This document shows, one piece after another, positions 10,687 to 64,000 of a stretch of DNA of 64,000 nt. How positions within the stretch are numbered: position 1 is the first letter of the stretch; every line of letters begins with the position of its first letter. Made by a program: the position numbers and the translations under genes. The stretch is from Amphiscolops sp. MND2022 (Eukaryota), in assembly GCA_964187785.1 (NCBI GenBank), contig OZ076409.1, forward strand, positions 50,532,001-50,596,000. Reading direction: 5' to 3'. The notes below the pieces were generated by a model. That model was not told where the DNA came from and made no database searches. It saw nothing but the letters and a program-made list of their open reading frames with translations.

Positions 10687-10699
10687 TCACTCCCCGGGC
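10687..10699 (-). promoter_or_regulatory. Polypurine tract of element A
   Basis: GCCCGGGGAGTGA on minus, directly before the LTR start TGTAAC. Confidence 0.75.
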
Positions 10700-13190: not shown

Positions 13191-14089
13191 TCACAGCGTG
13201 CTGAAAACTGCTCAACACTTTGCACACTGCTCAGCGGACTAGAAAATTTCGCTCTAGAGCAGATTGCTGCAGCCAAGTTGGATAGTGCGCACCAAACAGA
13301 CAGTCGAGCGGTTTGTCGACCTCTCAACCTCAAGAGATTTGGGTAATTTGCAATTGCCCAAAAGAGTTCTCTGCAAATTTGGCGTAATATTCGGCGTTGA
13401 TGCTACTCGATACAGCGGAATAACACCAAAATGAGGCACCAGAGCGTTCAAAAAGGTGACACACTCGGGCAATCCGGTCAAATTATTGTCACTAGGAAGT
13501 TGCTCCTCTCAAAATCTCGTGATTTTGGCTAAGTCGGAACACTCAGGGTCTCTTTTGGATATCGAAAACCCTGCTCAAGGTAATTTCTAGAGATTTTCGT
13601 TTGGAAAAATGTAGTCCAGAGCGCGTCGCAGGCACTTAAAACTGCTGCGTTGAACTGTTCAGGATCAAATTTCAAAGTTCCAGAGGAGTCCAAAATTTAT
13701 GACCCCTGCCGGCAATTTTTTTGAACCATGGGATTTACCTCGTTTGCACACAGGAAGGTCTACTGGGCCCTTTTCGTTGGAAAATGAAGGCTTTTTGGGT
13801 CTGCCTCCTATACAGCGGAAGTATTGAAGGTTTACAATGATAGATTTTCTGGTGCTTTTTGAATTTTGTTCAAGACGTGTGTCTGAACAGAGTCAAATTC
13901 AGTTTTATCAATCGTACTGGGTACAAAATGACACAGCACAATTTGTCAGCCACACAAGTCAGAAAAATAACCTTCCGTAGCTAATAATTGCCTCCAGCTA
14001 CAAGCTAGAGCCTTTTTCAACGATTTTTGGATTTTTCAACTTTTTTCGAAAATCACTCAGATGGCTTTTACAAGTGCTGGAAACGTGGT

Positions 14090-17674: not shown

Positions 17675-17692
17675 ATCCCTCTGTGGTCGCCA
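17675..17692 (-). promoter_or_regulatory. Primer binding site, tRNA-Arg(TCG)-like
   Basis: TGGCGACCACAGAGGGAT on minus is near-complementary to the 3' end ...UCCCUUCGUGGUCGCCA of metazoan tRNA-Arg(UCG) as I recall it. It lies 15 nt from the LTR end. Confidence 0.7.
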
Positions 17693-17707
17693 AAAAATGA
17701 GGTCTCA

Positions 17708-18480
17708 TGTAACGGCAAGCTGTTATCGGTCGCTTAACGCGTTAACAGAGGTGGAGGAACCTGCAGAAATGGGTGAATCGCTCGGGACAGGCGCCCATCG
17801 CCACAGATCCATTTTGCCTCCAGGGGTGAAATACGTCCCGGGGCCGCGGGTGCTTCGACGAATACTGTCCAACCGGTCCCAGTCTTTAATTGCTAATAGT
17901 AATGGGCATCTTTCTGACTCTCTAAAGACCACCGCTTAACTAGCATATAAAAACAATGCCAAGAATAAGGTAAATTTCCAGTTTCAGGGTGACATGTGAA
18001 TAAGATCTAAAATTGGGGAATAAGATCTAAATTAGCGCTAGCGCTACTGAATACAGCCAAAATCACTGAAAATACATGAAAACAGGCACGAATATGGCAA
18101 ACCACACAGCTAAAAAGCTGGGGCGCAGGGACTCCAAGCACCAAACAAGGATCTTTAGGCGAAAATACTCATTTTTACGGTTTCCGCTACATAGGGTAGC
18201 ATAATGCCGAAAATCGATAAAACCGGTGTTAGCACCTCAAAAAGAGTCTATTTTCAGTCGTTCTTGCCGTCTCTGGCTTCTGTCATGGCGGCGCGCCCGT
18301 ATTTTTGCTCGTTCTTGCTCTTTGTTGTCGAAGTACCTGCCAATTTCGTGGAAACAGCGAAAAGAGCAATCATATGCTCAGTGCCACGTCACACATCGGA
18401 TTAGAATTTTTGACAAAATTTCTGAACATGTCAAAGTTGCAAAATTGGTTGATATTGCTGTACCAGAGCTTGCCGTTACA
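17708..18480 (-). repeat. 5' LTR of element A
   Basis: Direct repeat of 9914-10686, with the PBS following on minus. Confidence 0.93.
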
Positions 18481-19876
18481 GTTCAACTCAATTTTATTGC
18501 GATTAAATATTCATCAAGCCTGCCACCGAGGACGTTTTTAAAAATTGAAAACTCTTCCAAAAAATTCTCACAGGATCAAATAACTAAAAATGACCCCCAC
18601 ATTTTAAAATCTAATTAGTTTTGTCAAAACACCACGAACATTTTGCTCTTTTTAAAGATGTTCGTAAGCGTTTCACATTCGGTATGAAATGGTCACTTCG
18701 ACCGGATGGAAAAAAAACACGACAAAAGGTCACTATAATAGCCACGATTTGTTTCATAAAGCGCCAACTAAAAAAGTAATGATCGATTCGAAAATTGTTA
18801 AACCTGATTTGTTCTACTCCAACTTGAACCCTTTGATGAACCAGCCAAAATGCAACAATGTTTGAGCCGGTTATTGTTTCTTGGGCTTTTTTTAAAAAAA
18901 TGAACAATTACTGTTTCGCTTGCTACGCACGTACATCTTAATGCTTACACATGTATGGTGTTGCCTGTACAACGCAACTCGGTATTAGAGACCAATCCTT
19001 ATTTCATTATGGATCCTTAAAAATGCATCCTCATTTCTCAACATGTACAGCTTCATGAATGATTATCCATAATTGAGAATGAAATCGAATTACCCATGAA
19101 GTCGAATATGAGGACATGAAAAAGTTGAGATAATGGATGGAATGACAAAAATGAGCTTTGATGATCAGGCTTGAAGGGGTTATGTTGGGAAATTGGGTTC
19201 TTGCTACTCAGAGATGATCACTATAATGGATCTATTTAATGTCTATTATGACGCTCTGTTGAGTTTTCCATCAATCGAAGTATTGAAACCCATCTGCGAA
19301 TAAAATGTCTCTAAGAAAGAGAATATTGCGGCTAATAGTACAAAACGTTGTGTTCTAATAAAATTTGGATACTACAGTACAGTACTTGGATCTAATAATT
19401 TCTTGCTCTCGATTCGTAGTTCAATCTAAGTTTTTCTAAAATATAATAATGTAACAAAGTAGCATCGACATTATGCAGGTACTCGAAAGAGAATAACTAA
19501 TTGAAGTAATTTCATTCAGGTTAATTGACAGGTGGTCAAAGATTCTTCCCGAAGCCCCCTTGGATCTTTTCTGATAATTCCCACCCTCCTTTGACCACCA
19601 ATTTAATTCTCCCAGTTAAGCAGTCAAGTGAAATTATCATTGAATTAATAGTAACAACCAATCAAATTGAAGTATTTTGTAACTCTAGCTGCAACTGAAA
19701 CTCATCGCTGATAGTGGTGGGGAATTAAAATAAATCAACAGAAAAGATCCGCCCTTTTAGTCTATTTGTGAGCACAGAAAGAGCTTTAAATGTAGCGAGA
19801 ACGACCTTTCACGTTTGTGATGACTTGGTGTCGGTTTTGAAAACGAATAGGTTTTAAACATCTTCAATTTAAGGTA

Positions 19877-20064
19877 CCCGGGTCAACCCTTTTACTAGCA
19901 TCTTGGCTGTCTTGGCAAGATCTTACCAACTTCTTACAACATCTTGGCGACCATCGAACCCGTGGCAAGATTCCTAATAAGATCTTACTAAGATTATACA
20001 TTATTTCAAGATCGTATCTGATTACGATGGACAAAATTCTAAGATTATAGAAAACACCATACCT
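19877..20064. mobile_element. Truncated left end of the same MITE, cut by the duplication breakpoint
   Basis: Identical to 23766-23953 and ends at the junction. Confidence 0.8.
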
Positions 20065-21596
20065 ACAGTCCTGCAGTTTTGGATTTTTTCGGTCCTTTCA
20101 CGCTTCTCTGAAGTCGAAACGTCACAGAGCTTTTCTCGACTTTGGTGAGCGATACGCCCACCAAATTTTCGGCACTAACGTTAATTTTTGTGCTGGTTAC
20201 GAAAATGCAACCACTTTTTGGCTAGGGTTCAAGAATCGATGACCCGACCTTAGCTCAGAGACAGTCCGGTTTTGTGGAAAATTGATCAAATCCAGTGCGT
20301 TTTTCCACTTTTCTCAGCACTGAAAAGGAATTTTTGCACGCGGTTTTCACCACAATGCGTTATTTTTACTATAAAAACAGAAAATGAGAGCGCGCGGGCT
20401 CCCAGGTCTCGAAAACACTGAGTGCCCCAGAGGTTTTAATGATGCACTCTGGCACTTCTGAAACTGGCCAAAAATCAAGGTTTTTCGACCTGTTCTCACC
20501 AAGAAAACGTTACAAACTCTCTTAAATCCTATTTTCGGTACCGTGGAGTGTGCCCCAAACTAATAGCAGCACGGAAGAGGCAATTACATCACAATCCAGC
20601 ACTCTCCCAGTGGCATTTCATAGTGGTCTTTGCCACTTTCGCCAAAAACCGGGTTTTTTCATGCAAAATGTGTTCCAAAAAGGACTCCAACGGCCTTTCT
20701 GGTTGTCGTTACAATATGTAGCATAACCCTCAAGGTCTTGGGCTGCTTTCTATTTTTTTTTGCAACTGCTGTGGCTAATACTTCGAGCGCTCGCGCTCGT
20801 ACCAAGAAAAGTACTCAAAATGCCAAAAATCACGTTTTTGCGACTTTTGCACTAAAAATCGCACTTTTTTCACTGAAAACAGGTGCAAAAGCACACACTC
20901 AGTTGCAACAGGGTAAAACTAGCATGCACAATGGATTCCCCGTCAAAAAAAACACAATCTAAAATTTTTTTCATACCATACTCCAAAAAACCGATTCTTG
21001 CGGAATGAGGGGTGGTACCTTCGCCGTCTTTTTTCTCAACAACCAGACCAGCCAGAGAGAAACGGTTTGGACCGTCGGCAACGTCAGTGTTTGTTCTAGC
21101 TTTCCATCAAAAACAATGCTTCTAGCACGTCTCCACGTGAAATGGGAAAGGAGAGTCGGGAACACTCGTTTCAGCTCATCTATCGGTCAGATGGAACATG
21201 GCGCATCCATCAACTGAATACCTCGTACATAGCCAAAAACGCTGAAATGAGCTGTAAAACATCTGTTACCACATGCGTAACGGCTTTCTAGCGGTTCGCT
21301 AAGCCATTACAAAGGTACCCGCTGATGGGAACGTGCAATTTTAGACGATACCTGTCAACGATACCTGTTATCAAAACATACCATAGGTATTCGGAAAAAT
21401 CCCCCGAAAGACTGGAAAAATACCAAAATATAACGTCATAACATCTAAAAAATTTGGAAAAACTCTGGGTAAACGTCTCCTTCCAGAGTCCAATCGTTCT
21501 TGGCGTCCAATACCAGGGGGTCGGAAATTTCAAAACCATATAATAGGGCAGTAATCGGAAGCGATCCCTCTGTGGTCGCCAAAAAATGAGGTCTCA

Positions 21597-22369
21597 TGTA
21601 ACGGCAAGCTGTTATCGGTCGCTTAACGCGTTAACAGAGGTGGAGGAACCTGCAGAAATGGGTGAATCGCTCGGGACAGGCGCCCATCGCCACAGATCCA
21701 TTTTGCCTCCAGGGGTGAAATACGTCCCGGGGCCGCGGGTGCTTCGACGAATACTGTCCAACCGGTCCCAGTCTTTAATTGCTAATAGTAATGGGCATCT
21801 TTCTGACTCTCTAAAGACCACCGCTTAACTAGCATATAAAAACAATGCCAAGAATAAGGTAAATTTCCAGTTTCAGGGTGACATGTGAATAAGATCTAAA
21901 ATTGGGGAATAAGATCTAAATTAGCGCTAGCGCTACTGAATACAGCCAAAATCACTGAAAATACATGAAAACAGGCACGAATATGGCAAACCACACAGCT
22001 AAAAAGCTGGGGCGCAGGGACTCCAAGCACCAAACAAGGATCTTTAGGCGAAAATACTCATTTTTACGGTTTCCGCTACATAGGGTAGCATAAAGCCGAA
22101 AATCGATAAAACCGGTGTTAGCACCTCAAAAAGAGTCTATTTTCAGTCGTTCTTGCCGTCTCTGGCTTCTGTCATGGCGGCGCGCCCGTATTTTTGCTCG
22201 TTCTTGCTCTTTGTTGTCGAAGTACCTGCCAATTTCGTGGAAACAGCGAAAAGAGCAATCACATGCTCAGTGCCACGTCACACATCGGATTAGAATTTTT
22301 GACAAAATTTCTGAACATGTCAAAGTTGCAAAATTGGTTGATATTGCTGTACCAGAGCTTGCCGTTACA
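21597..22369 (-). repeat. Third family-A LTR copy, created by the tandem duplication
   Basis: Same LTR, PBS and right flank (GTTCAACTC...) as 17708-18480, offset by 3889 bp. Confidence 0.92.
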
Positions 22370-23765
22370 GTTCAACTCAATTTTATTGCGATTAAATATT
22401 CATCAAGCCTGCCACCGAGGACGTTTTTAAAAATTGAAAACTCTTCCAAAAAATTCTCACAGGATCAAATAACTAAAAATGACCCCCACATTTTAAAATC
22501 TAATTAGTTTTGTCAAAACACCACGAACATTTTGCTCTTTTTAAAGATGTTCGTAAGCGTTTCACATTCGGTATGAAATGGTCACTTCGACCGGATGGAA
22601 AAAAAACACGACAAAAGGTCACTATAATAGCCACGATTTGTTTCATAAAGCGCCAACTAAAAAAGTAATGATCGATTCGAAAATTGTTAAACCTGATTTG
22701 TTCTACTCCAACTTGAACCCTTTGATGAACCAGCCAAAATGCAACAATGTTTGAGCCGGTTATTGTTTCTTGGGCTTTTTTTAAAAAAATGAACAATTAC
22801 TGTTTCGCTTGCTACGCACGTACATCTTAATGCTTACACATGTATGGTGTTGCCTGTACAACGCAACTCGGTATTAGAGACCAATCCTTATTTCATTATG
22901 GATCCTTAAAAATGCATCCTCATTTCTCAACATGTACAGCTTCATGAATGATTATCCATAATTGAGAATGAAATCGAATTACCCATGAAGTCGAATATGA
23001 GGACATGAAAAAGTTGAGATAATGGATGGAATGACAAAAATGAGCTTTGATGATCAGGCTTGAAGGGGTTATGTTGGGAAATTGGGTTCTTGCTACTCAG
23101 AGATGATCACTATAATGGATCTATTTAATGTCTATTATGACGCTCTGTTGAGTTTTCCATCAATCGAAGTATTGAAACCCATCTGCGAATAAAATGTCTC
23201 TAAGAAAGAGAATATTGCGGCTAATAGTACAAAACGTTGTGTTCTAATAAAATTTGGATACTACAGTACAGTACTTGGATCTAATAATTTCTTGCTCTCG
23301 ATTCGTAGTTCAATCTAAGTTTTTCTAAAATATAATAATGTAACAAAGTAGCATCGACATTATGCAGGTACTCGAAAGAGAATAACTAATTGAAGTAATT
23401 TCATTCAGGTTAATTGACAGGTGGTCAAAGATTCTTCCCGAAGCCCCCTTGGATCTTTTCTGATAATTCCCACCCTCCTTTGACCACCAATTTAATTCTC
23501 CCAGTTAAGCAGTCAAGTGAAATTATCATTGAATTAATAGTAACAACCAATCAAATTGAAGTATTTTGTAACTCTAGCTGCAACTGAAACTCATCGCTGA
23601 TAGTGGTGGGGAATTAAAATAAATCAACAGAAAAGATCCGCCCTTTTAGTCTATTTGTGAGCACAGAAAGAGCTTTAAATGTAGCGAGAACGACCTTTCA
23701 CGTTTGTGATGACTTGGTGTCGGTTTTGAAAACGAATAGGTTTTAAACATCTTCAATTTAAGGTA

Positions 23766-24750
23766 CCCGGGTCAACCCTTTTACTAGCATCTTGGCTGTC
23801 TTGGCAAGATCTTACCAACTTCTTACAACATCTTGGCGACCATCGAACCCGTGGCAAGATTCCTAATAAGATCTTACTAAGATTATACATTATTTCAAGA
23901 TCGTATCTGATTACGATGGACAAAATTCTAAGATTATAGAAAACACCATACCTTCGGTACGAACAACCGAGACTCAATCTAAAAGCTCAATTCACCCCAT
24001 ATTGACTGTTTATACTCGTTTTCATAATCAAAATGCTTAAACCTGCTGAAATAAATTTGCATGCAAAACTGTGCGAAAAATTACGATAACGCACTCATCT
24101 ATTCGTGCTATATCTATAACGTGCTATTCTGGCTTCCGAAACTCTGACGAGAATTCGAATAACTCCTCACCTGTTTAGGACAGAGAAATACAAATATACC
24201 AAATGAACGCTCATATCAAGGACTTTTGAAAACTTGTAACTTATCACTCCTGTCGATTCCAGAGACGGAGAAAAATGATCTCAAACGTCCAAAGCCACTA
24301 TCGGAAAGTAACACAGGGAACACTAAGAAATCCGGTAATTTTTTGTAAATTCATATCTGTTTTTCTTTGAGCCTGTTTCAGCAGCCGTATTACGTCCCGT
24401 TTTGGGAAATGATTCAGCTCGAGGCTTTTCTGACGCCGTTCTTGGCGGCAGTTTTGCAATTGAGAGAACAATTTAATCAGTGCATCCCTAAATGAACAAC
24501 ATAAGGACTCTTCAATCAAATTTTATATCTTGCAATTTTAATGTCTAACAATATAAATCTGCAAAAATTTTGATTTTTGTTGACTTCCTTTCAGATTTTT
24601 TTCTTGCCAAATAGGATTTTACAATAAAATTATTCTGGGAAACATGGCTCTTTTGATAAGATCTTACCATGACATCTTGCAATTCTTGGCAATATCTTGG
24701 CAAGATGTTGCCAAGATCTTACTAAGATTTCCATGGTGGGTCAACCCGGG
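23766..24750. mobile_element. MITE, same family as 5337-6351
   Basis: TIR CCCGGGTCAACCC / GGGTCAACCCGGG, TA TSD, collinear with 5337-6351. Confidence 0.82.
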
Positions 24751-49800: not shown

Positions 49801-50864
49801 TAAAAAGATCAACGGAAATCAGAATTTTTGAAAGTCAAACTTCTGAAATACCAAAACCCAGCTAAATCAAACATTGGGTTATTGAATATATGCGTCGCCA
49901 CGTCTAATAAATATATAGCTAACTTTATGCATACGTTCTTATGGACAGGTGCATGTTTATGATTTTGGTAACTTTTCTTCAAAATAAAGGAATTAATTTT
50001 ACAGCTGAATAAGAATTCAGTTTATAACCATTATTCGAACACGATAAGAACCAGAGATTGTTATCGCATTCTGATTTGAACAGATTTTATCACACTATAG
50101 AGAGCTAGTTTTTAGTCGGCGCTTTTAGTTCAGATTAAAATCGCCCGACTATTACAGTTACAAATAAAGCAGTCGATAAGATGTTTTTCCAATTTTTTTG
50201 AGCCAACTTTAAACTGTTCTCCGCTTGTTTATACCTCCAGTTTCTTTTACAAGTCTTAAACTTTTGTCGATGTTGATACCTCGTACTGAAGTTCCCCCTC
50301 ACAGCGTGTTGAGACACGTGACTTGTTTTTTTTGACATGACACAATTATTTCGAGTTTAAGATTTGAAGCTATCAAATGAACAATTAGATTCGAAGGAAA
50401 CGGCCTTGTCAAAGTAGTAACACAAATATATGCCTTTGTTCAACTGAAAAGGAGGTTCAAGTAACTTTCCATATCAAAATTTCCTATTCTTACAAATTCC
50501 CAGAAGCCCTAGAAACAATCTTATAAAAAATTGCAAAAGCACAAAAAAGCAAAATGAAAGAAAAACGAATAATTTTGTGGCATCATGAATGTAACTTTTC
50601 GTCAAACAAAATAAATTCCGAGAAACTAAATTTTTGAAAGAATCGGGTGTTTGTTTTAATTTGTGGCCAGTGGAATTTGAATGTAACGTGGGCGAGCTGG
50701 CCGCTTCATAACATCATTTCTTCTATTGGGGCTATCGATTCTTCCAAAACGAGTTGATAGATAAAACGTTAGGTGGTAAAAGTCTTTGGACCAAAAATGG
50801 GAATTTATCAATGGCTATCCAGTGTGAAATTTCTTAAAACCTTTGACAAGAATCTTGCATATTA

Positions 50865-51060
50865 ATATTTTTCCTGGATGGTTTTGGTCTTTAAAAAGTC
50901 TTGCCCAGATTCATTTATAGGTTTCCAAGGTTTCTGAGCATTTTATATCTACAGTTTCAAAATTTTGAAACTGTAGATATAAAATGCTCAGAAACCTTGG
51001 AAACCTATAAATGAATCTGGGCAAGACTTTTTAAAGACCAAAACCATCCAGGAAAAATAT
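50865..51060. repeat. Perfect 196-bp palindrome with no spacer
   Basis: 98-bp arms, centre TTTCAAAA|TTTTGAAA at 50962/50963. Confidence 0.95.
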
Positions 51061-51190
51061 GATCTTGCAAGAGTTTGCCGAGAGCTTCAAAAGGAAAACC
51101 AGCGAAAAATAACGAAAAGAGCCAAAATCAGTTGCGAACAGCCGCTTGGTTAGTGTACTTATTATAGATATTATACAGCAGTGGGAGAAA

Positions 51191-51926
51191 TGTAACGACA
51201 AGCTCTCACCATTGTCGCCGTAACCATAAGAGTTAGAGGAACACATGATATGGGTATTTGCCCGGGACAGGCGCCCATGACCATGAGCTCATTTTGCCTC
51301 TTTCGGGTAAAAACTGTCCCGTCAGAGGAGGATTCCGCTTCTTGTGAAGTGCTCGCCGGCCTGATCCAGTCTGTAATTGCTATCAGTAGTGCGCATTACG
51401 CTTTTTCTTCGAAATCAACACTTAGATAGCCTTTAAAAAAATGCAAGTGGTGGAAAGGGAAAAATCAAGTTCCTTCGAAGTTACACAGGAGATTGAAATA
51501 AGTAGCTCACGAGCTGTTACAACAAGAAAATACGAAAATTACTACATAATTAGCACTTTTGAGGCAGCAATTAGCCGGGGACACAAGCACGGATGCTTGG
51601 TCAAGCTAATTGACTCATTTTTGGTAATCACAGCGTCTTGTAACGCTTCGCTGAAGAAAGCACTGGTTAGAACAAAGTTCAGTCCGTTTTGGCAGAAATT
51701 TGAGTCTTTTTCTGACAGTGGCCGTGTTTTTCTGCAATCTTCTCGTTCGGTTGGGGTCTCTCTCGAGTCTCTTGCTCAAATCCTCTTCAATTCCGTGGAC
51801 AGGTACTTGAATAAAGACACGCTACCGTCTGGCGGAATATGACTCTTTAGTAGAGGAGATATAGTCCCTTGAACGAAATTTTCATCGAAATTTTCGAAAT
51901 CGTACACTCGATAGGTAATCGCTACA
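51191..51926 (-). repeat. 3' LTR of the Gypsy element (family B, 736 bp)
   Basis: On + it starts TGTAAC and ends GCTACA, followed by TACACTCCCCGGGG (PPT complement). It shares the blocks CGGGACAGGCGCCCAT and CATTTTGCCTC with the other LTRs in the window. Confidence 0.85.
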
Positions 51927-52942: not shown

Positions 52943-55534
52943 TTACTGGGTGGCGGAGGAGTGACGCGCTCTGGGGGAAACGTCTGCCTTTGGTTGCAGT
53001 TCGGACAGAGATCCTCTTCGCGTATTTCCTCCTCGCAGGACTGGCTTTGGTTCGGCGCTGGCAGTTTCATGGGTCCTAGGAGCCGTGTTTGAGCCACCAG
53101 GGCCATTTTCTGCGGCTACCGGAGTTGATGCTTCTGGCGAATGTTCTTGCGCTGCATTGGCTGAGCCGCTAACATTGGCAGAACTTGTGGTTGACGTGGA
53201 GATTGGGATCTGTACATCCAGTCTACTAGCATTAAACAAGTGCGGTAGATCCAGCGGTCTATTGCGGGTGGCAATGGGTCGTTTCTGTTTCGCACTGAGT
53301 TTCGGGCGTAGATCAGGTCGGCCCCAGAGCCCGCAGGCTCTGGACCAGTTGTCCCTATTCGCATGTTCTATGATTTGCCTAGAGGCTTCCCATTCGGGTC
53401 CGAGGGGATCACTTAGCAATTCCATGACGTGGTAGCAAGTCTCCGCTGGCATGTCGCTTCCCATAGTAACCCTCGCCTCTGGATTCCAAACAGGCATTGT
53501 CAGTGGGGGGATGATCAAACCTTTTAGGAGTCCTTGGCGCTCCTCCAGGGTCCTTGACATCCACACGCCAAGTTTGTAGTGGTCGCGATAGGAATACTGC
53601 TCATCAAAGCCCTTCTCGACCATACTGATTGGCTTGGCCCGGATATAACCGATGGGTCCTCGCCAGTACCTGGCTGGAAGCTTAATCATTTGGAAATTGT
53701 ACTCCTGATTCATGTGACCGCCCATGGTTTGCACACATTCGGTCACGTACTTCCTGAGGTGTGCGAAACTCCAATTGAATCGCTGTGGGATTCCGAGGTG
53801 GTCTAGGGGAGAATTATACCAATTCACCGGGCCGTATTCGCGAGGTAAAGGGCACGCCTTCTTTGTTCGGGCTTTGAGAATACCGGCCAGGTTTTCGTCT
53901 TGCTGCGTCTCATTCTTTATTGTGGTATACATGCGTGGTACTAGCAGAAACAGCCCACGTTCAAGCATCTGTTGATAGTTGTGTGGTTTCACGTTCTTCA
54001 GATAAGTTAGGATGGATACCGTTAACGTCTCCGAGGCCAGTCTCAGAGGCTTGGTGGGATATCGGAGTATCCCGGTTGGGCCAAATATCGGAGTTAGCAC
54101 GGGTGCTAACACCGGTATAAGATCTTCGACTTCAGCCAAAGTGAAATCTGCCAGCTGGTTGGGTGTCAAAAATCCAGCTACCTCGGTCACTAGCTGACGT
54201 CCATCATATAATGGTTGGTGCTTATCCACCCCCACAAAAAGTCCCGAGGCAAAGACCAGACTGCAATATATCCAGTGATATAATGAAGTTGTCATACGCT
54301 CCAGGTGAGCGGGATAATCCTGAGCGTCTTTCCGTTGCAACAGCTTGGCTAGGGCGGTGAGGCCTGAGATATTCCCTCGTGCAATCACTAAGTATGAAAA
54401 TAGCCATTCCAGATTACACTCGGTAACCAGGTCGGTCAATATCATCATTGGGCCAGCTACAAAGCGTTTCTGCCCGAAAGTGAGCATCAGTGCAAAGAGT
54501 TCGTTCACCTGCACGGTACCGATAATCTCGCTGATTTCGATCAACCAACTCTCCTCTAAATCGAACTCGACTCGAATAACATCGGGACTCCAACCCAATC
54601 CTAAACAGATGGCAAACTGGTCGGTTGACATCCCAAGCTCTTTTGCAATGTCTGCTACGGTGGTAGTTTGTAGCCGCTGGTACCAAGCGTCGTAGGTGCT
54701 GCTGAAGGCTTGGATTTCAGCCTGAGTTTCGCTCGTCAGTTTTGCAGCAATGTACTTCATTCCCACTGATAATTGATCGATTGTGAGGTCTTTGGCAAAT
54801 TGAACTCGCGGGATCGCTCGTTCTACTTCTCGGTCGCTGGGGACTTTGCTCATTGTGGCAGTGACTTCTGCTAGATCGGTTTTGATACAAGTCTTTCCAC
54901 CGGAGGAGCGCGCGCGCTCTATCCAGTTATTCAGGCGGATTGCCTCGCATTCAGCCGTACTGGGCTCTGGGACTCGCCTTTCTCCGTCCTTGTTGAATAC
55001 CAACAAGCCCATGCGAGTGCCGTGATCAAAGTAGATGGCATCGTCGATTGTCAGCTGCGCGTTCCCTGTCTTTTCCACTGACTGTAGCACTTTAGACACT
55101 GAGGCAATATACCCCATGTAGGACAGCCAGGAGGGACGAAAGTCATTGGAGCTAATCCGCATATTGGGCGCGCAGATCGCAAAGTCTATTTCTCTACACT
55201 TGCAAACTTCTGTCACCATGTATACAAATCTCTGCAAGGCGAAGGGCCATTGGCAAAAACCTGGGGGTGTCACGAACAGGGCTGGCACCTTGAGTTTGTC
55301 CTTCAAGATGTTTTGGGCTTTCTCCATGGCTCGGGCCATGTTCAATGCTGCATTGCGTACCGTTGTTCGCTGAGCCGGACTTGGATTCATAATCTCAACG
55401 TTCGCGATCTGGGCCATTAGTCCTTCACAGGCCATGTGATCGAAAACGTTGCTGATGATCACTCTACGTGGAGGTGGCTCTTTGAAGGTTCCTGTCATCT
55501 CAGGGTCAAACATGGTGACCAACACTTCGGCCAT
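52943..55534 (-). CDS. Retrotransposon extra ORF, part b: remainder of the SGNH-like domain plus a large uncharacterised region
   Basis: 863-aa ORF with GC content like pol, between part a and the 3' UTR. No obvious env hallmarks. Probably the continuation of 55495-57561 across a -1 frame break. Confidence 0.85.
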   Translation of the reverse strand: MAEVLVTMFDPEMTGTFKEPPPRRVIISNVFDHMACEGLMAQIANVEIMNPSPAQRTTVRNAALNMARAMEKAQNILKDKLKVPALFVTPPGFCQWPFALQRFVYMVTEVCKCREIDFAICAPNMRISSNDFRPSWLSYMGYIASVSKVLQSVEKTGNAQLTIDDAIYFDHGTRMGLLVFNKDGERRVPEPSTAECEAIRLNNWIERARSSGGKTCIKTDLAEVTATMSKVPSDREVERAIPRVQFAKDLTIDQLSVGMKYIAAKLTSETQAEIQAFSSTYDAWYQRLQTTTVADIAKELGMSTDQFAICLGLGWSPDVIRVEFDLEESWLIEISEIIGTVQVNELFALMLTFGQKRFVAGPMMILTDLVTECNLEWLFSYLVIARGNISGLTALAKLLQRKDAQDYPAHLERMTTSLYHWIYCSLVFASGLFVGVDKHQPLYDGRQLVTEVAGFLTPNQLADFTLAEVEDLIPVLAPVLTPIFGPTGILRYPTKPLRLASETLTVSILTYLKNVKPHNYQQMLERGLFLLVPRMYTTIKNETQQDENLAGILKARTKKACPLPREYGPVNWYNSPLDHLGIPQRFNWSFAHLRKYVTECVQTMGGHMNQEYNFQMIKLPARYWRGPIGYIRAKPISMVEKGFDEQYSYRDHYKLGVWMSRTLEERQGLLKGLIIPPLTMPVWNPEARVTMGSDMPAETCYHVMELLSDPLGPEWEASRQIIEHANRDNWSRACGLWGRPDLRPKLSAKQKRPIATRNRPLDLPHLFNASRLDVQIPISTSTTSSANVSGSANAAQEHSPEASTPVAAENGPGGSNTAPRTHETASAEPKPVLRGGNTRRGSLSELQPKADVSPRARHSSATQ

Positions 55535-57561
55535 ATGGGAATACGTGACAGCGGTAGAGTAAAAACCATCACGTCTGACAACACGTTGTCAATGGGGACA
55601 TTCTTGAGGAATGTTGAGTCAATAAGTAAGGCGAAGCGCGCACGCTGCAACCTTTCTTTTGGCATTGGTAGCTGGGCTTCGAGATCACGGGCGTACCGTG
55701 GGTTGATCTCAAAGGTCTCTCCAGCGTTGAGGAAATATCGATCGGCGAATTGCCCACGAAGGTCAACGTTGAGGGCATCTAGGTAATTGTCATCCACGTT
55801 TGGCAGCATATTCATTGCCTTCCCTAGCCATGGCGGCTCATTGGTAGGAGTGTGGTCTGGGCGGATTGGACGATTCATGAATACGGGTACATTCGCCTTC
55901 TTCAGTTTCGCATGCTCTTCGTCATTTGGAGGACACATGTTTTTCTCAAATAGCCATTCGGGCGATACTATAACTGCCGATTCCCAGATACGTCGGGAGT
56001 CCTTGGTGACCAATGTGCCCTTTGTGTTCTGCATGGGACTCAGGTACGTCGGCTGTTTCGTAAAGGTCCTCTTAGTTGGGTGTTGAATCGCCTGTTTCCG
56101 GAGCGGGGTTCCAGTTGGACCACTGTTGGTCACTTTCAACCCTGGGTAATCACCCATTATGTCCTTGACAGTTCGCTGGGATACAGGGGTGCCTTGATAA
56201 CCCACAGTTTGCTCCGATTGTGGCTGTCCTGATGTGGAGGGCTTAGGAGTCGCTCGTTGAGCCAGCGACTCGCGTGTTGTAGACTGCGTGGATGGTGGTT
56301 GCGGCAGTCCTTGTTGTTCGCCTGTTACGTCCGGTTGTGATTGGGGTGAGGGAAGCACGCATGCTTCCGACACTTTTGACTTCGTTTGGTCTGGCGCTTT
56401 GGAGGTTGTGGCCTTCTCGTTGGAAATCTTTTTGTCGGGTGGTGGCTTGCTCGAGGGGCTGTCACGGGCAGTCAATGGTTGTTGAGTCTTTTTTGTTGGA
56501 GAAGGGTCGTTGCGCTTTCTGGAGGCAGGGCGGCTCTCTCCTCCCCCCTTTTGAGAAGAGCGGGAAGGCGAACGACTGCGTTCCACAGTCACGGTGCGAG
56601 AGTGTCCTGGCTGTTCAGACTGAGGATTGATGTGGGGAATAGTGATGACACCTTGACGTGTTTCAGTTGAAGTCGCATTGTCGTTGCGAATAGTGACAGT
56701 GGGCAGAGCAATTCGACGTAGTTCTGGCCAACACTGCTCCATGGATCGCATGAAATCATCGTAATTGGGATTGGCAGCCACTGCTTGCAGCGCTGAGATG
56801 ACTGCTTGCTCCGCCATAGATTGATTGGGCAAGCCAGGCACTATAGGAGCAGGAGTGCGCGCACGCACTACTGCTTGTGGTGTTGGTGCAGGAGGTGGCG
56901 GTGGAGGTGGAGGCGGGCAAGAAGGGATCTGTAAAGGTCTAGTCTGGTGGACTCCGCCATTCGCAGGACTATACGAGATCGCCGCACGATCATCTGTGAA
57001 GTGATGCGTGAGATCATGGCCGTGCCACACTCCATCTTGGTACGTCATGGATCGTTGGAATCCAGGAAACCCTGAAGTAATTGATATCGTCAGCATTGGG
57101 GCTTGCAATTGTGATTCCATTTGGGCAATGATTGCTGCTACCCCGGCAACTGCAGCTGGCGACAGACCTTGGTCGAGTCTGTCTCGAATAAAGGCAATTT
57201 GTGGGGTGCGTTGGACACGCGCAGTGTCGTAGACGCGTTGCCCCAAGGCAGGAGAGTTATCTGTAGACCTTGGCGGGACGTTGTTGCTTCTATCATTATC
57301 TTGGTTCATGACGACAATTCTGAAAGAGCGTAGGTCGATTGTAGCACACTTGATAGTAGGGCAACACCATAGGTCATTTAAGGGTAATACCAGGGAAAGT
57401 AATAGAATGTCACACATTAACATTAAAGAAAAAGATAACGTAACAGTCTCAAATAATCTTCGTGTCGATTCACTAAACTCAATCGAGCGGACAAAAAAAA
57501 ACGAAAAACAAAAAAAAAGCGGACAAACGAAAGCTTTACGGAAAGCTAGCGACGCTTGCAA
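55495..57561 (-). CDS. Retrotransposon extra ORF, part a: proline-rich/disordered protein ending in the start of an SGNH-like domain
   Basis: 688-codon ORF directly after the pol stop. The track start is TTG; in-frame ATGs lie at 57423 and 57309 (MNQD..., favoured). It has a poly-Pro tract and a Ser/Thr/Pro/Gln-rich middle, ends ...RFALLIDS...FTLPLSRIP and overlaps the next ORF in the -1 frame. Confidence 0.8.
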   Translation of the reverse strand: MQASLAFRKAFVCPLFFCFSFFFVRSIEFSESTRRLFETVTLSFSLMLMCDILLLSLVLPLNDLWCCPTIKCATIDLRSFRIVVMNQDNDRSNNVPPRSTDNSPALGQRVYDTARVQRTPQIAFIRDRLDQGLSPAAVAGVAAIIAQMESQLQAPMLTISITSGFPGFQRSMTYQDGVWHGHDLTHHFTDDRAAISYSPANGGVHQTRPLQIPSCPPPPPPPPPAPTPQAVVRARTPAPIVPGLPNQSMAEQAVISALQAVAANPNYDDFMRSMEQCWPELRRIALPTVTIRNDNATSTETRQGVITIPHINPQSEQPGHSRTVTVERSRSPSRSSQKGGGESRPASRKRNDPSPTKKTQQPLTARDSPSSKPPPDKKISNEKATTSKAPDQTKSKVSEACVLPSPQSQPDVTGEQQGLPQPPSTQSTTRESLAQRATPKPSTSGQPQSEQTVGYQGTPVSQRTVKDIMGDYPGLKVTNSGPTGTPLRKQAIQHPTKRTFTKQPTYLSPMQNTKGTLVTKDSRRIWESAVIVSPEWLFEKNMCPPNDEEHAKLKKANVPVFMNRPIRPDHTPTNEPPWLGKAMNMLPNVDDNYLDALNVDLRGQFADRYFLNAGETFEINPRYARDLEAQLPMPKERLQRARFALLIDSTFLKNVPIDNVLSDVMVFTLPLSRIPIWPKCWSPCLTLR

Positions 57562-60500
57562 TAGATACGTAAACGCGATCGTGAAGAACGACGGTCAGGG
57601 GGGTGTCGGCGAATACGTCCATCAAACAGGCATAAAAATCAAAAAGATTACGTATTGGGCGTTCAGGATCAACGATGGTAAAGTGTACTTCTATCGCCTC
57701 CAAGCGCTCGAGTAACGTTTTCAAATGATCAAGACATCCAAAGAGAATATCAGCGAGCATAGGGCAGCGAGGTGTAGCTCGTGTGATTAAAAGGTGGATA
57801 GTCTGAGGATGGCCGTCTATCAGAGATGTGGGTAGCGTTACAATATTGCCAACCTCCGGTCGAAGTTGAAAGATTGCATCTGCACCATGCTCACGAATGA
57901 CGTAACGAAGAGCGGCAGAACTAGTTTCCAGATTTGCGGGACAACATAAAACGATATGATGGGGAGTCTGCAGGAAATCCGTATTGGCATACTGCACATA
58001 GTCAACCAATTGAGGTCTCGCGGCTCCATGGTACACTAACTCTCGTCCGGGGTCCTTGAAGAGAGCATCGTCACATGCATTCGGGAGGAGGCCCTTGATT
58101 GCGCCCAAATCTTGCCATACAGATCGCGGCAATGATTGATTATCAATATTAGCCCTGGACCATGTATCCAGTGCGTGCAGGGCCGATTGGAGGGATACAG
58201 GACTAGGAAATGAGTGTGTCCATTCGTCCAGGAATCTGATTCGTGAAAAATTTGATAAAACTGCTATAATAAGTTCCAGCCACCATTCAAACTTAATTTT
58301 ACCACGATATAGGTCTATCGTGTGGAAACAAGTGATTTTATCAGGAGAGGCCATCGTCCGCAAACTCTCCAGACAGGTGTTCAAGTTAGTGGGATGAACC
58401 AAGTCGGATGCTTGTTTGGCCGTAACTAGTAGCCACCAGTTGCTTGTAGGCTGATAAACGTCTCCTGGTTTAGCTGTGACGTTGTATTTGTCGTACAAGA
58501 GGTCAGCAGGAATACAGCGTATCATTTGGATAGGCTCTCGCTCATAGTTGAAAGGACCAAAAACAATATTAGTAGGCAAAGGGGGAACAGTGATGGGTAA
58601 AGTGAACTCCAAACCAACAAGATCATAGGTCCACTCCTTGAACCTTGGGCACGGGGCCTTTGCTATCGTAGAATCGTTCATTTTGGATAGGATATAGTCC
58701 ACGGGATATGGAGTGTCACTGCGTTGTAGCCCAGTGTAGGTTTTCTCGGCTCGAATAACCAAACGGTCAACCATTCCGCTCGGAAGTGATTTCTCCTGTT
58801 CAAGTGCTAATAGGACTCCCTGGGATTTGATTGGGAAGCCCGCGTGGATCATGTAGTTACATTCGCAGTTTCTCAGGCCACATGTTCCGCAACGATATCT
58901 GGGAATGCGATTGCGTCGCAGTCCATAACGAGCGTTGGTCGATTCTGGCGGTGCTGCCTGATCTGAGGTAACCGCCGCGCTAGGGGCAGAAGAGTCAGTG
59001 TCCATTGATGGAGTGTTACGAACATGGGTAGGAGTGTTAGGTCTGGCGTGCGTTGTACGAGGAGGTCTACCTCTGGGACGGCCTCTTTTGCGAGCGCCTC
59101 TAATAGCACCTCTCCGTTGGTGACCACGTGGCAGCGAGGCTCGCGGCCTTGCTCTGCCTGGCGGACGTCCCCGGGGTCCACGCCCTCTAGGAGCATTGGG
59201 GAGTTTCGTGGTAGTAGCTGCATCATTGTTGATGGGATTTGTTGCAGGGGGAATTGATCCCTTTTCGTTATTGGTCGTTGGTGTGTCAGCACCGTCGTCG
59301 TCCAGGGTTGGGTTGAGGTCATTGTCATCGATTAGGGGCCAAATGGGAAAGTTACTCAACATATCCGTAAGAGATGGATTTGTCAATAATGGGGCGGATG
59401 TACCGGTCAAAGAAGTGGCGGCACTTTCGGTGGGTACGTGGATATCAGGATTCGGGGCGACATCTAATGCGTCTGGTACTGCTTCATTCTCTGAAAATAG
59501 AGCCTCCATAGCAGGTAGTGGTGATATTGGCATTTCGGGAATAGGCGCAGGCTCGTCTACTTGTGATGACAAGATAACACTTTCGTCAGGATTTGCCTGA
59601 GCACTCGATAGGAGTACATCAGAACGTTCATCGTCAGACTCAGTCGAAGAGTAGCCAAATTGTTGATAATACAGGCGGCTGCCACCTGCGCGCATGTGTG
59701 TGCGTAACCGTGTGTCCATCCAATGTCTTTGTCGAGAAGGCAAAGAGGCATTGCTGGCTTCTGAAATTGGTTCCTCTGCACGGTAAGAAGGTTGCGAAGC
59801 GTCGTCTCTCACCTCCTCATGGGATTGTTCTGGATCAGGGTCCATGATGATAGCAACCTCACCGTTATGCGCAGGAACAGCTGCCCATTCTGTTGGACCA
59901 CCATGATGCGGTTTCAATCGTTCAAAATGCACTTTCTGACCAGTGTCAAGTATGTAGACGCGTCCCTCTTGTAGCACTCGTGCTACCTTGTGAGGACCAC
60001 GCCACGCTCTCATCAATTTAGGGGATCCCTTTTGAGGAATGTATCGGCAGAATACCCAAACAGGTTCGCCCACTTCGTAGGCCTTAGCACGAATTGCTCT
60101 GTCGTACTTCAATTTTTGTCGTTGCTGGGCTTGATGCGTGTTGCGACGGACTAAGTCATGAATCTCTTGTTGTCGAGCCAGCACATGTTCCACATAGGCT
60201 TCGTGTGATTCGAATGACTGAGTTGCAAATTCCGGATACAAAAAAGTCAGGGGTATAGCTTTTTCCATGCCTCTGGTTAGCATATACGGGGAGAATCCAG
60301 TAGTGGCATGACGTGTGGAGTTGTATGCACCCATAACTTCATCTAGGTACTGATCCCAGTCACGCATTCGTCTAGAGCAGAATACACGCAGTAGGGTGAG
60401 TAGCGTTCGGTTTTGTCGCTCTACCAACCCTTGAGTCCTGGGGTGGCCAGCAGTTGAGGTTACTTTGGTCACTTGGGCTGCTTTCATAAACTCAGCAGAT

Positions 60501-63500
60501 ATTGCCGCGGTGAAATTGGGAGCATTGTCTGACTGCATCCTCGTTGGCGTTCCATGGCGGGCAAACCACTTCTGCAACAACAACTTTGAAGTGGTCGCTG
60601 CATCATACTCATCGTGGTTACACGGCACAGCTTCTGCGAGCTTAGAGAAATGATCGATAATAACCAATATCCCTGTGTTACCATCATCAGAGGGACAAAT
60701 TTTCATGTGGTCATATTGGACTAGCTCGTTGAAATAACCGCTTTGGATATTCTTCAAGTGAAAGCGTACATCACCAGGCTTGTCGCGTACTTGTTGACAA
60801 GTGATACATTGGCTGACGTATTGTCCAATGGTGCGGCGGATGCCTGGCCAAGTGTGGCGCTCTTGAATTCTGGCCAAGACTTTCGCGATGCCCTGATGTC
60901 CCATCGCGTCGTGGGCCTTGAATAGTATCTCATGCTGATACAATTGTGGCATCACTATCATGCAGGGGCGTTCATGCAGAGCTCTTTGAGTTTTGGAGTA
61001 TTTTACACACAAAATCCCGTTGGCGTTTATCAGTAGAAGGTTCTTCTTCTGTTTGTGGTAGTTTTTGGCAAAGGCACGTACATTTTCCGGAAAGACGTCA
61101 TTATCTATTGATTCTTGCGTTACCAATTTCTTGATAGCCAATATATGGACGTCACGGTTTTGTGCTAGTAGTAGATCCTTCAACCCATGGACTGTGTTAG
61201 CATGTTCATGCAGTTCCATTGATATGCTGTTTACCACAAACGCGGCTTGTTTTACGTGCTCTGGTGCAGTGCTAGTTGCTTGCTTTTCCGTCAGTGGGTA
61301 AGTGGTTCTCGATGGTACGTTAGCAGCATGCGTGGGGAGTAGATAGTCTCGTTGATATTCCTCGGTCAGTTCTAACCAATCCTCAGGATATTCTGGATAA
61401 AGTTCGACAGGCAGTGTCAATTCTGGTTTTGGCAACGTAGGTAGAGGCGCTCTCATGGCTTCCTCGCGTATGGTTGCATTTCGTTTGCTTCCTCCGCTCT
61501 TTCGCGTGGGAGCGGCAACTGTGGTCTCGGGTGAACTTTGGCTACCCAACCTCTGCAAGTGTGCAGGCAATTCTGGGTGATTTGGTATCACACGTCCGTG
61601 GACATCGAACCATGGGGCGAGCGGGAGTTTGTTATATTCCTCCTGTGATAGGAAATCCCATTTGTCTGCAATTGTGGGTAAACCCTTTAGTTGCTTTTCG
61701 TGTTTTTTGTAATCATTTGTTCGTTTGCTAAGACCGTCAGCATTTCGATGTTGCGTTCTGGGTCGATGCTCAATGCTGAAGTGATATTTTTCAAGAGCCA
61801 TAATCCATCGACCGATAATTGCCTGATCCATCGAATATGTTTTTAGCCAGGATAGAGCCTGATTATCTACTCTCAATGTGAACTTTCGTGGACAGAGATA
61901 ACTGTGGTTTTTCAAGATGAAATAGTATGCAGCATACATTTCCAATTTTGGGGCTCCATACTTTGCTTGCGTAGCAGTTAATTTTTTGCTTCCGAATACA
62001 ATCGGTCGCAGTTTGCGACTCTCAGGTGGTCCTTGCCATTGGTGCAGAATACCCGATATAGCTACACCACTAGCATCTGTGTCGAGAACAAATTCGCCTT
62101 CAGTGTCAGGTTGCGCCAGAGCAGTGGCTTCCATTAGTGCCACTTTGATGCTGTTGAAGGCTCGCTGCTGCTCCTCCCCCCATAAAAATGAAGAGGCTCC
62201 TCCCGTTATCGCGTGTAAAGGAGCAACTAGTTTTGCATGCCACGGGATAAAATCTCGATAGTAGTTGGCAAAACCCAAGAAACTTTGCAATTCAGTCTTG
62301 GTTCGCGGGATATCCCATTCTTTCAGCTTGATGACAGCTTTTGGATCTGGCTTGATACCATCTGCAGATACTACCCGGCCCAAATATTTGATCTCCGATT
62401 TCATGAAGTCACACTTGGAGACTCTCATTTTGAACCCGGCCTCACGCAGGCATTGGAATACTTCGCGTAGTCTGTCCATGTGATCCTCGATGGTCTCGGT
62501 AGCAATCACAATGTCATCGATGTAGGCCATAACCATACTTCCTTCACGGTTCACTATTCTTTGTAGCGCTCGCGCTATTGCCCGTTGAAATGTTGCTGAT
62601 GCGTTACACATACCAAAAGGCATACGCCGCCACTCAAATAACCCAAGTTCACAAGCGAAGGCAGTCTTTTGACGATCGGCTTTTCGGACAGGAATTTGCC
62701 AGAATGCCCACGCCAAGTCAATACTAGTATAGATTTTGGCTTTGCCCAATCTGGATAGACTTTCATCGATACGTGGCAAGGGATAAGCGTCTTTGATGGT
62801 CACTTCATTAAGTGGTCGAAAGTCACAACAGAATCGCAACTCACCACTCTTCTTTTTGACCATGACAATTCCACTCGCCCAAGGGGATAGGGAAGGTTGT
62901 ATCATTCCCAAAGCTAGCAGGTCACGGACTTCTTGGTTAGCACGTTCTGCCTTGTCAGGCGACATTCGTCTTGCACCTTCGCGGTGAGGTACAGCCCCTG
63001 GCTCTACTTCCACCGGGTGCTTAGCGATTTTACACTTGCCAATATCGGCTTTGAATTTCATAAACAAATCATCAAATTCATTCAAAAGTTTACTAAGCGT
63101 GTCGCTGGCGGTCGATCCCCACAAACCGCGCACTTCGTCGAGTTGTGCTTCCGGGCCCGGTATCGGAGCCATTAACGCCGGATCGGTTCGTTTTTTTACT
63201 TCGCGCTCGGACAAGCCTAGTTCTGACGGTTCGGTAGAGGACAAAAACTCAAATTCAGATGAAGAACTATATTCAGAAGAAGAATCAAGGTTCATCTGTT
63301 CGTAAACTTTACAAACATAATTTGCATTTGACTGCTGAGTTTCACTTGATTGTCCGGGGACAATCTGGGGGATGGCTTTATGAACCATTGTTACGGGTAC
63401 CGCGGTTCCTAAAAGGGTGCCCTTTTTAATCCGCTGCACGTTGCTGGTAAGATTTCCTAAACTGACGTAAAGGAAGCCAGTCTCCCCCACGGTCGCCACG

Positions 63501-64000
63501 GTGTCCTCTAAAAAGATGGCGTTTTTTAACATTCGGTTAGATGTTTGGAAATTGATTAGCACGGTTCGAAATATGAAAGGTTCTAAGTTGTCTACAAGCA
63601 ATTTAGCGCGTAGTATTGCGCGTTCAAAAGGTTGCAACACTACGTCCTGTGCAATCGCCACCGATGAATTGAGTGATTCGTTACTTACTTGTGTGTGGGC
63701 ATGGTACCACACTGGTTCAGACGGAGCTCGGACAATGACCTTCATCGCGGTTAAATCCACCAAGACTTGATAAGCTCTTAGGAAGTTTCTGCCCAGGAGG
63801 AAGTCTTCCACTCCCATGGCGTCATCGACTACCACGAAGTTAGTTTCCAGTTCGTAGCCTCCCAATTGGAACTTGACTTTCTCCGCTAGACCAAAAGTTT
63901 TGATCGTTTTCCCATTCGCGGCATACAAGTCAATACCATAAGGTCGTAGGAGTGTCCCAGTGCGCACAGCGACTCGATTGTAGGCTGAGAAGGTGAGGAT
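57536..64000 (-). CDS. pol: Gypsy Pol polyprotein: C-terminal protease half, dUTPase-like spacer, reverse transcriptase, RNase H, integrase and a long C-terminal extension
   Basis: ORF of >=2143 aa, open to the window edge (ILTFSAY...). Protease tail FLLGRNFL. RT motifs SPWASGIVMVKKK, CDFRPLN, YPLPRID, MPFG, YIDD (~62515). RNase H DTDAS (~62075) and RVDNQAL. Integrase HDAMGH...CITC (~60790-60915), D-D-E (QYDH, QSDN, VERQNR) and GPY/F-like WRGPHKV. TAA at 57536. Confidence 0.97.
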   Translation of the reverse strand: MLTFSAYNRVAVRTGTLLRPYGIDLYAANGKTIKTFGLAEKVKFQLGGYELETNFVVVDDAMGVEDFLLGRNFLRAYQVLVDLTAMKVIVRAPSEPVWYHAHTQVSNESLNSSVAIAQDVVLQPFERAILRAKLLVDNLEPFIFRTVLINFQTSNRMLKNAIFLEDTVATVGETGFLYVSLGNLTSNVQRIKKGTLLGTAVPVTMVHKAIPQIVPGQSSETQQSNANYVCKVYEQMNLDSSSEYSSSSEFEFLSSTEPSELGLSEREVKKRTDPALMAPIPGPEAQLDEVRGLWGSTASDTLSKLLNEFDDLFMKFKADIGKCKIAKHPVEVEPGAVPHREGARRMSPDKAERANQEVRDLLALGMIQPSLSPWASGIVMVKKKSGELRFCCDFRPLNEVTIKDAYPLPRIDESLSRLGKAKIYTSIDLAWAFWQIPVRKADRQKTAFACELGLFEWRRMPFGMCNASATFQRAIARALQRIVNREGSMVMAYIDDIVIATETIEDHMDRLREVFQCLREAGFKMRVSKCDFMKSEIKYLGRVVSADGIKPDPKAVIKLKEWDIPRTKTELQSFLGFANYYRDFIPWHAKLVAPLHAITGGASSFLWGEEQQRAFNSIKVALMEATALAQPDTEGEFVLDTDASGVAISGILHQWQGPPESRKLRPIVFGSKKLTATQAKYGAPKLEMYAAYYFILKNHSYLCPRKFTLRVDNQALSWLKTYSMDQAIIGRWIMALEKYHFSIEHRPRTQHRNADGLSKRTNDYKKHEKQLKGLPTIADKWDFLSQEEYNKLPLAPWFDVHGRVIPNHPELPAHLQRLGSQSSPETTVAAPTRKSGGSKRNATIREEAMRAPLPTLPKPELTLPVELYPEYPEDWLELTEEYQRDYLLPTHAANVPSRTTYPLTEKQATSTAPEHVKQAAFVVNSISMELHEHANTVHGLKDLLLAQNRDVHILAIKKLVTQESIDNDVFPENVRAFAKNYHKQKKNLLLINANGILCVKYSKTQRALHERPCMIVMPQLYQHEILFKAHDAMGHQGIAKVLARIQERHTWPGIRRTIGQYVSQCITCQQVRDKPGDVRFHLKNIQSGYFNELVQYDHMKICPSDDGNTGILVIIDHFSKLAEAVPCNHDEYDAATTSKLLLQKWFARHGTPTRMQSDNAPNFTAAISAEFMKAAQVTKVTSTAGHPRTQGLVERQNRTLLTLLRVFCSRRMRDWDQYLDEVMGAYNSTRHATTGFSPYMLTRGMEKAIPLTFLYPEFATQSFESHEAYVEHVLARQQEIHDLVRRNTHQAQQRQKLKYDRAIRAKAYEVGEPVWVFCRYIPQKGSPKLMRAWRGPHKVARVLQEGRVYILDTGQKVHFERLKPHHGGPTEWAAVPAHNGEVAIIMDPDPEQSHEEVRDDASQPSYRAEEPISEASNASLPSRQRHWMDTRLRTHMRAGGSRLYYQQFGYSSTESDDERSDVLLSSAQANPDESVILSSQVDEPAPIPEMPISPLPAMEALFSENEAVPDALDVAPNPDIHVPTESAATSLTGTSAPLLTNPSLTDMLSNFPIWPLIDDNDLNPTLDDDGADTPTTNNEKGSIPPATNPINNDAATTTKLPNAPRGRGPRGRPPGRARPRASLPRGHQRRGAIRGARKRGRPRGRPPRTTHARPNTPTHVRNTPSMDTDSSAPSAAVTSDQAAPPESTNARYGLRRNRIPRYRCGTCGLRNCECNYMIHAGFPIKSQGVLLALEQEKSLPSGMVDRLVIRAEKTYTGLQRSDTPYPVDYILSKMNDSTIAKAPCPRFKEWTYDLVGLEFTLPITVPPLPTNIVFGPFNYEREPIQMIRCIPADLLYDKYNVTAKPGDVYQPTSNWWLLVTAKQASDLVHPTNLNTCLESLRTMASPDKITCFHTIDLYRGKIKFEWWLELIIAVLSNFSRIRFLDEWTHSFPSPVSLQSALHALDTWSRANIDNQSLPRSVWQDLGAIKGLLPNACDDALFKDPGRELVYHGAARPQLVDYVQYANTDFLQTPHHIVLCCPANLETSSAALRYVIREHGADAIFQLRPEVGNIVTLPTSLIDGHPQTIHLLITRATPRCPMLADILFGCLDHLKTLLERLEAIEVHFTIVDPERPIRNLFDFYACLMDVFADTPLTVVLHDRVYVSIASVASFP

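Follow-up and report, generated by a model that had tools for sequence, protein, structure and literature searches.

The window (the whole stretch of 64 kb that was analysed), taken with the adjoining DNA, contains an LTR retrotransposon of 19,238 bp with an internal part of 17.8 kb. Its features within the window are the following:

57536..64000, minus strand: Gag-Pol frame, 3292 codons in unbroken copies
62378-62860, minus strand: reverse transcriptase (RT), within the Gag-Pol frame
61784-62182, minus strand: RNase H, within the Gag-Pol frame
59993..60949, minus strand: integrase, with an H2C2 zinc domain, an rve core with D-35-E spacing and a GPY/F-like motif
59063..59182, minus strand: three RGRP sequence motifs, AT-hook-like
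58859..58927, minus strand: basic Cys4 motif, conserved
58223..58579, minus strand: macro unit 1, a shortened TARG1-class fold (predicted) with the loop-1 region deleted
58013..58222, minus strand: inter-unit linker of ~70 aa, with two helices predicted at low pLDDT
57575..58012, minus strand: macro unit 2, a full-length TARG1-class fold (predicted) with a remodelled pocket
52943..57594, minus strand: ORF2, here split over two frames, with the shift near 55495-55588
51191..51926, minus strand: 3' LTR, 736 bp, TG...CA ends
51188..51190, minus strand: target-site duplication, 3 bp

The order of the domains, a Gag with a CCHC knuckle followed by protease, RT, RNase H and integrase, matches Ty3/Gypsy (Metaviridae), and the TG...CA LTRs, a PBS-like sequence, a PPT and the GPY/F-like motif are all present as in this group. 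The PBS-like sequence is atypical, since it begins 16 nt beyond the LTR end in the family of the window; at L050, at the other 5' LTR loci and in all subfamilies seen, it starts ~15-17 nt past the CA end instead of directly adjoining it. In the window copy, the gag part is interrupted by an in-frame stop, outside the window, and ORF2, which in a different copy of the same family is a single frame of 1531 codons, is frameshifted. Its 3' LTR differs by one mismatch from the 5' LTR, which lies outside the window. Searching the genome with the macro pair as query gave 4537 candidates. The best 110 of these were scored and are 96-100% identical to the window pair; 108 have no stop in the pair region and 67 have frames of at least 3000 codons, in a ranking that favours unbroken copies. 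LTR pairs could be scored in 13 of 14 elements and show only 0-3 mismatches each. Hence, the family was likely mobile recently. ORF2 (1400-1530 codons) had no match in Pfam, PDB or Atlas, and no Env-like anchor was found in it. It aligns with its counterparts in two subfamilies (~960 aa at 41% identity in one, ~735 aa at 31% in the other), and a long ORF2 is missing from three related subfamilies. At one locus (L035:6500-9991, minus strand), the Gag region is unusually long, ~1100 aa upstream of the protease; its N-terminal part is a long stretch of low complexity, and it has two zinc knuckles.

Downstream of the integrase, Pol ends in two similar folded units. This had been noticed in an earlier sequence-only reading, which described them as tandem macrodomains of the TARG1/DarG type, and structure prediction agrees. 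Both units are modelled as minimal macro folds, with TARG1/OARD1 (C6orf130)/DarG, the ALC1-like macrodomain class, as the top fold match; how the two pack on each other is predicted without confidence (pTM 0.45). TARG1 is also the sole significant sequence-profile match in the PDB for unit 2 (E 6e-4). Unit 1 is linked to the TARG1 profile only via unit 2, in a profile-profile comparison with E 2.7e-5 and a probability of 74% (37% in the opposite direction; E 0.3 for the linker as a control), and its own profile scores the intact macrodomains carried by other elements (see below) at less than 5 bits. Human TARG1 scores 22 against the full A4 profile. The units are ~14-19% identical to TARG1/DarG, from which they differ in lacking Lys84 and Asp125, in having Gly121 and Gly123 replaced, in being tandem and fused to a Gypsy Pol, and in the shortening of unit 1. 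The two were likely duplicated from a single captured TARG1-class enzyme.

The pocket residues were compared with those of TARG1 across 27 aligned sequences, with the numbering of the TARG1 alignment (chain number + 6), by which Gly43, Ile44, Lys84 and Gly123 fall on their published positions. In unit 2, Lys84 is replaced by Arg (24/27), Gly121 by Asp (26/27), Gly123 by Glu (25/27), Leu124 by Arg (27/27), Asp125 by Pro (17) or Ser (10), and Gly43 by Ala. The equivalent of Asp20, which we take to be the adenine contact of TARG1, is retained in 27/27. Unit 1 lacks ~23 residues, loop 1 among them. It has Ala (18) or Ser (9) at the Lys84 position, Asp at Gly121 (27/27), Tyr at Gly123, Arg at Leu124 (26/27) and Gly at Asp125 (27/27), with no conserved equivalent of Asp20 (Asn in 17, Glu in 5, Asp in 2, others in 3). 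The loss of catalytic residues that had been read from the sequence is therefore borne out: neither unit keeps the TARG1-type hydrolase dyad, as catalytic Lys84 and acidic residue 125 are both replaced, nor the Gly-rich phosphate loops (Gly43/Ile44; Gly121, Gly123).

Published mutants of TARG1 help to interpret these changes. The catalytic dyad is Lys84 and residue 125 (PMC7050489, where it is given as Glu125; it is Asp in the PDB chain), and K84A is catalytically inactive (PMC8501950). The substitutions G123E, G43E and I44E abolish ADP-ribose binding; G123E also loses catalysis and recruitment to damage sites while retaining RNA binding (PMC5928194). Because unit 2 has Glu at the position of Gly123, we infer that ADP-ribose binding was lost in the pair. 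The loop-2 signature Asp-x-x-Arg is common to both units, which suggests that loop 2 was rebuilt before the duplication. In unit 2, the loop-1 Ser-Ala and the Arg/Asp/Glu/Arg cluster are retained in nearly all distant homologs, and Glu stands at the Gly123 position in eight of the nine most distant ones. This pocket looks remodelled yet still under selection. The distant homolog P0231 has Lys at the Lys84 position of unit 2, and another, P0318, retains Gly123, which counts against the docking function proposed below.

TARG1-type macrodomains with intact catalytic motifs occur elsewhere in the same genome; like the 3-bp target duplication, they had escaped the earlier reading. A Pfam Macro search gave 24 matches among 150 scored candidates, and 20 of these loci were retrieved. 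Three have short frames of other macro classes; the other 17 have TARG1-type motifs, with the catalytic Lys in 17/17 and the Asp in 16/17, and 14 of them show Pol similarity within the retrieved locus. The intact macrodomains fall in three Gypsy lineages (L084-L100; whole elements in L127-L136), with one TARG1-type macrodomain each, at these positions:

downstream of the integrase: L085 and L098 types, which are sisters in the tree
between RNase H and integrase: L094 type
between protease and RT: L095 type

These elements are only 23-34% identical to the clade of the window element (hereafter the pseudo-macro clade) over RT-RNase H, and therefore the clade does not descend directly from any of the intact-macro lineages. 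With the unit-2 profile, scores are 12-26 bits for the L085 and L094 types, 15 for L095, 2-3 for the L098 type and ~0 for the three strongest Pfam Macro loci of the genome (L081-L083). An origin of the pair among macrodomains carried by elements is plausible on these scores. An L085-type element (L127:3439-9213) has a weak dUTPase-like match in Pol (E 0.003), and the L085 and L094 types (L127/L128; L131/L132) carry additional 3' ORFs (783 and 805 codons) that have no relation to ORF2 of the window.

The pseudo-macro clade keeps both units. Six further elements were retrieved whole (14.7-19.7 kb, with Gag-Pol frames of 2998-3303 codons), all ending in the macro pair, and together with the window family they form one clade in trees of RT-RNase H and of integrase (support 99/99 and 100/100; 11 rows, all from the source genome). 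The pair is present in 7/7 subfamilies, and the three without ORF2 still carry it along with the AT-hook-like and Cys4 motifs. Taken with the 108 stop-free copies, this supports the expectation of the earlier reading that the region is kept in frame across copies. Of the database homologs with 40-85% identity, many belong to the source genome or to one nearly identical to it (P0141 100%, P0066 98%). The distant homologs P0218, P0185 and P0318 have no close match in the source genome (at most 36%, 45% and 35%, respectively) and hence likely derive from other genomes; both macro units are present in P0218 and in P0337. The macro units are under purifying selection, but are far less constrained than the enzymes of the element: in the comparison with the 83% subfamily, dN/dS is 0.05 for unit 2, 0.05 for the linker, 0.006 for RT and 0.09 for the low-complexity tail, and for unit 1, dN is 0.10 and the synonymous sites are saturated. 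Identity in the two most distant comparisons is 44-48% for the macros, 83% for RT and 36-40% for the low-complexity tail. The macros thus diverge much faster than RT and integrase and somewhat more slowly than the tail, which also weighs against a docking function.

What could such a pair do at the end of Pol? The chromodomain is the textbook accessory domain at this position, and the claim that the macro pair occupies the C terminus of Pol, where chromoviruses have theirs, stands. Pfam scans of Pol found no chromodomain family; its terminal domains are predicted to fold as macros. The pair is separated from the integrase by a tail of ~440 aa, mostly low-complexity, with one to three RGRP motifs per element, which presumably are AT-hook-like, and a Cys4 motif that possibly binds zinc; both occur in 8/8 elements examined. 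The linker between the units is conserved. Our preferred reading, which we hold tentatively, is that the pair consists of predicted TARG1-class folds without catalytic residues and provides the tail of the integrase with a docking module that recognizes a host chromatin protein and not ADP-ribose. A Gypsy ancestor would have carried a TARG1-type macrodomain in Pol, as is still the case in three other lineages of the genome. Loop 2 of this domain, which binds phosphate, would have been remade into Asp-x-x-Arg, after which the domain would have been duplicated, and the first copy, unit 1, would then have lost loop 1. The pair would remain attached to the integrase behind the long low-complexity spacer, where the AT-hook-like motifs could hold AT-rich DNA while the macros grip a protein partner, and the integration complex could thereby be tethered much as chromodomains do in chromoviruses. 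Net charge is -8 for unit 2 in the window copy (-9 to +4 in 25 sequences) and about neutral for unit 1, and hence a protein partner fits better than binding of nucleic acids by a basic patch. The closest functional analogy is the SUD of SARS-CoV, whose tandem macrodomains SUD-N and SUD-M swapped ADP-ribose for other ligands (PMC2674928). Chromoviruses also have an accessory folded domain at the Pol C terminus after the integrase (PMC12440569; bioRxiv 10.1101/2021.11.30.470311), but theirs is a chromodomain, whereas here there are two macro folds ~440 aa away from the integrase with a putative tether role. A docking function is harder to reconcile with the Asp20 equivalent, the loop-1 Ser-Ala and the Arg at the Lys84 position of unit 2, which resemble a ligand pocket.

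Ty3/Gypsy target duplications are typically of 4-6 bp, a trait that is not the basis of classification and from which the pseudo-macro clade departs. All 13 scorable elements have duplications of exactly 3 bp, all different and all with A or T at the center. A 3-bp duplication is also found in one additional copy of the family and in five of six other subfamilies (in D3220, read by eye); in the sixth, B3193, no matching duplication was found. Three intact-macro elements have duplications of 4, 5 and 5-6 bp, with uncertain ends in two. The association of the pseudo-macro tail with a 3-bp stagger is a correlation only, within one clade. A recent description states that 3-bp duplications are made only by Troyka elements (Kojima 2025, PMC12440569). 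They share this feature with the window element but have CG...CG ends, LTRs of 100-400 bp, an internal part of at most 7.7 kb, no GPF/Y motif and a CX2CX8-10HX4C knuckle, against TG...CA ends, LTRs of 736 bp, 17.8 kb, a GPY/F-like motif and a CX2CX4HX4C knuckle here. The termini, the LTR length and the GPY/F-like motif led us to reject an identity with Troyka. A 3-bp duplication with TG...CA ends is outside the published range, and annotation tools that expect 4-6 bp therefore likely miss the clade. The flanks of the 13 insertions, on nine contigs, have no tRNA genes, a GC content at background (0.33-0.41) and no clear enrichment in repeats (shared-repeat matches in 9/26 flanks vs 9/36 control tiles). 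This lack of a targeting signal at 13 sites counts against a docking or tethering role. It also bears on the earlier proposal that the pair steers integration to ADP-ribosylated or damaged chromatin, for which no bias is visible at these sites.

That proposal came with a second one, a decoy against PARP-based defence. Both need ADP-ribose binding and are therefore weakened by the Asp and Glu at Gly121 and Gly123 of unit 2, and further by the missing loop 1 and the lack of a conserved Asp20 equivalent in unit 1. We still consider, as a rather unlikely alternative, that unit 2 reads ADP-ribose or PAR with a rebuilt pocket, steering integration or soaking up the signal of PARP defence. The ALC1-like class does include readers (PMC7050489), and unit 2 has conserved residues lining its pocket (27/27 for the Asp20 equivalent, Gln231 and Arg334, 26/27 for Ser248 and Ala249, 24/27 for Arg294), which are also kept in homologs that likely come from other genomes. 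It would have to accommodate two acidic side chains, one of which abolishes both binding and damage recruitment in TARG1 (PMC5928194), a partner unit without loop 1 and the absence of insertion bias at 13 sites. It is unlikely that the pair is instead cut from the integrase by the protease, or acts before integration, binding RNA of the element or a cytoplasmic host factor in packaging, translation or counter-silencing, as SUD does. The long tail before unit 1 would allow for this, RNA binding by TARG1 does not depend on its pocket (PMC5928194) and SUD binds G-quadruplexes (PMC2674928), but the units are neutral to acidic in the window family and the adjoining AT-hook-like and Cys4 motifs suggest DNA or chromatin. 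Even less probable is that unit 2 is a non-canonical hydrolase, able to strip ADP-ribose from proteins or from the ends of cDNA although it has no Lys/Asp dyad. Neither residue of the dyad is present in the ALC1-like hydrolase SCO6735 (PMC7050489), a new active site could be formed by the conserved Arg/Asp/Glu cluster, and the activity is plausibly useful to elements given its residues in the intact lineages, but the phosphate groove appears blocked by the Gly121 and Gly123 replacements and the domain changes at a much higher rate than the enzymes of the element. Finally, that the pair is a relic kept only for harmless folding at the end of Pol would agree with its moderate constraint and with the low dN/dS of the tail, but is largely refuted, as the pair is truncated in none of the seven subfamilies, although three have no ORF2, and both units, with the same residues in the pocket, recur in homologs of 30-45% identity that likely belong to other genomes.

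Viral macrodomains are known as counter-defence enzymes, and in other animals, proteins of transposon origin are marked in domain databases as having Poa1p/TARG1-like macros, which makes the intact form less novel. The capture of a macrodomain by an LTR retroelement has a parallel in fish epsilon-like endogenous retroviruses, where macros are described as additional ORFs (Basta 2009 as cited in PMC4977317). In the open-access literature covered, we found no macrodomain in a Gypsy Pol, and the duplicated pseudo-macro form and its clade with 3-bp duplications look undescribed. The full picture, an undescribed clade of giant Gypsy elements (15-20 kb) with a 3-bp stagger, in which a duplicated and re-purposed TARG1-class macrodomain tethers the integrase and its rebuilt pocket reads a chromatin mark or partner, is doubtful as a whole. 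If it were true, it would, with the three lineages of intact erasers, make ADP-ribosylation a widespread and overlooked front of conflict between hosts and retrotransposons. The intact macros at three positions of Pol and the remodelled duplicate form a natural series within one genome, in which one can ask whether ADP-ribosylation restricts or guides retrotransposition. As the domains are small, purified proteins could be used to address it.

The window has other features of note. A palindrome at 50853-51072 (110-bp arms at 96%) lies ~120 bp from the 3' end of the element, and a second one at 7511-8088 has 248-bp arms at 100%. A minus-strand ORF of 476 aa (11760-13190) has only sub-threshold Pfam matches. 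The region 9914-24700 contains near-identical repeats 3889 and 7794 bp apart, which could be a tandem unit or a local duplication.
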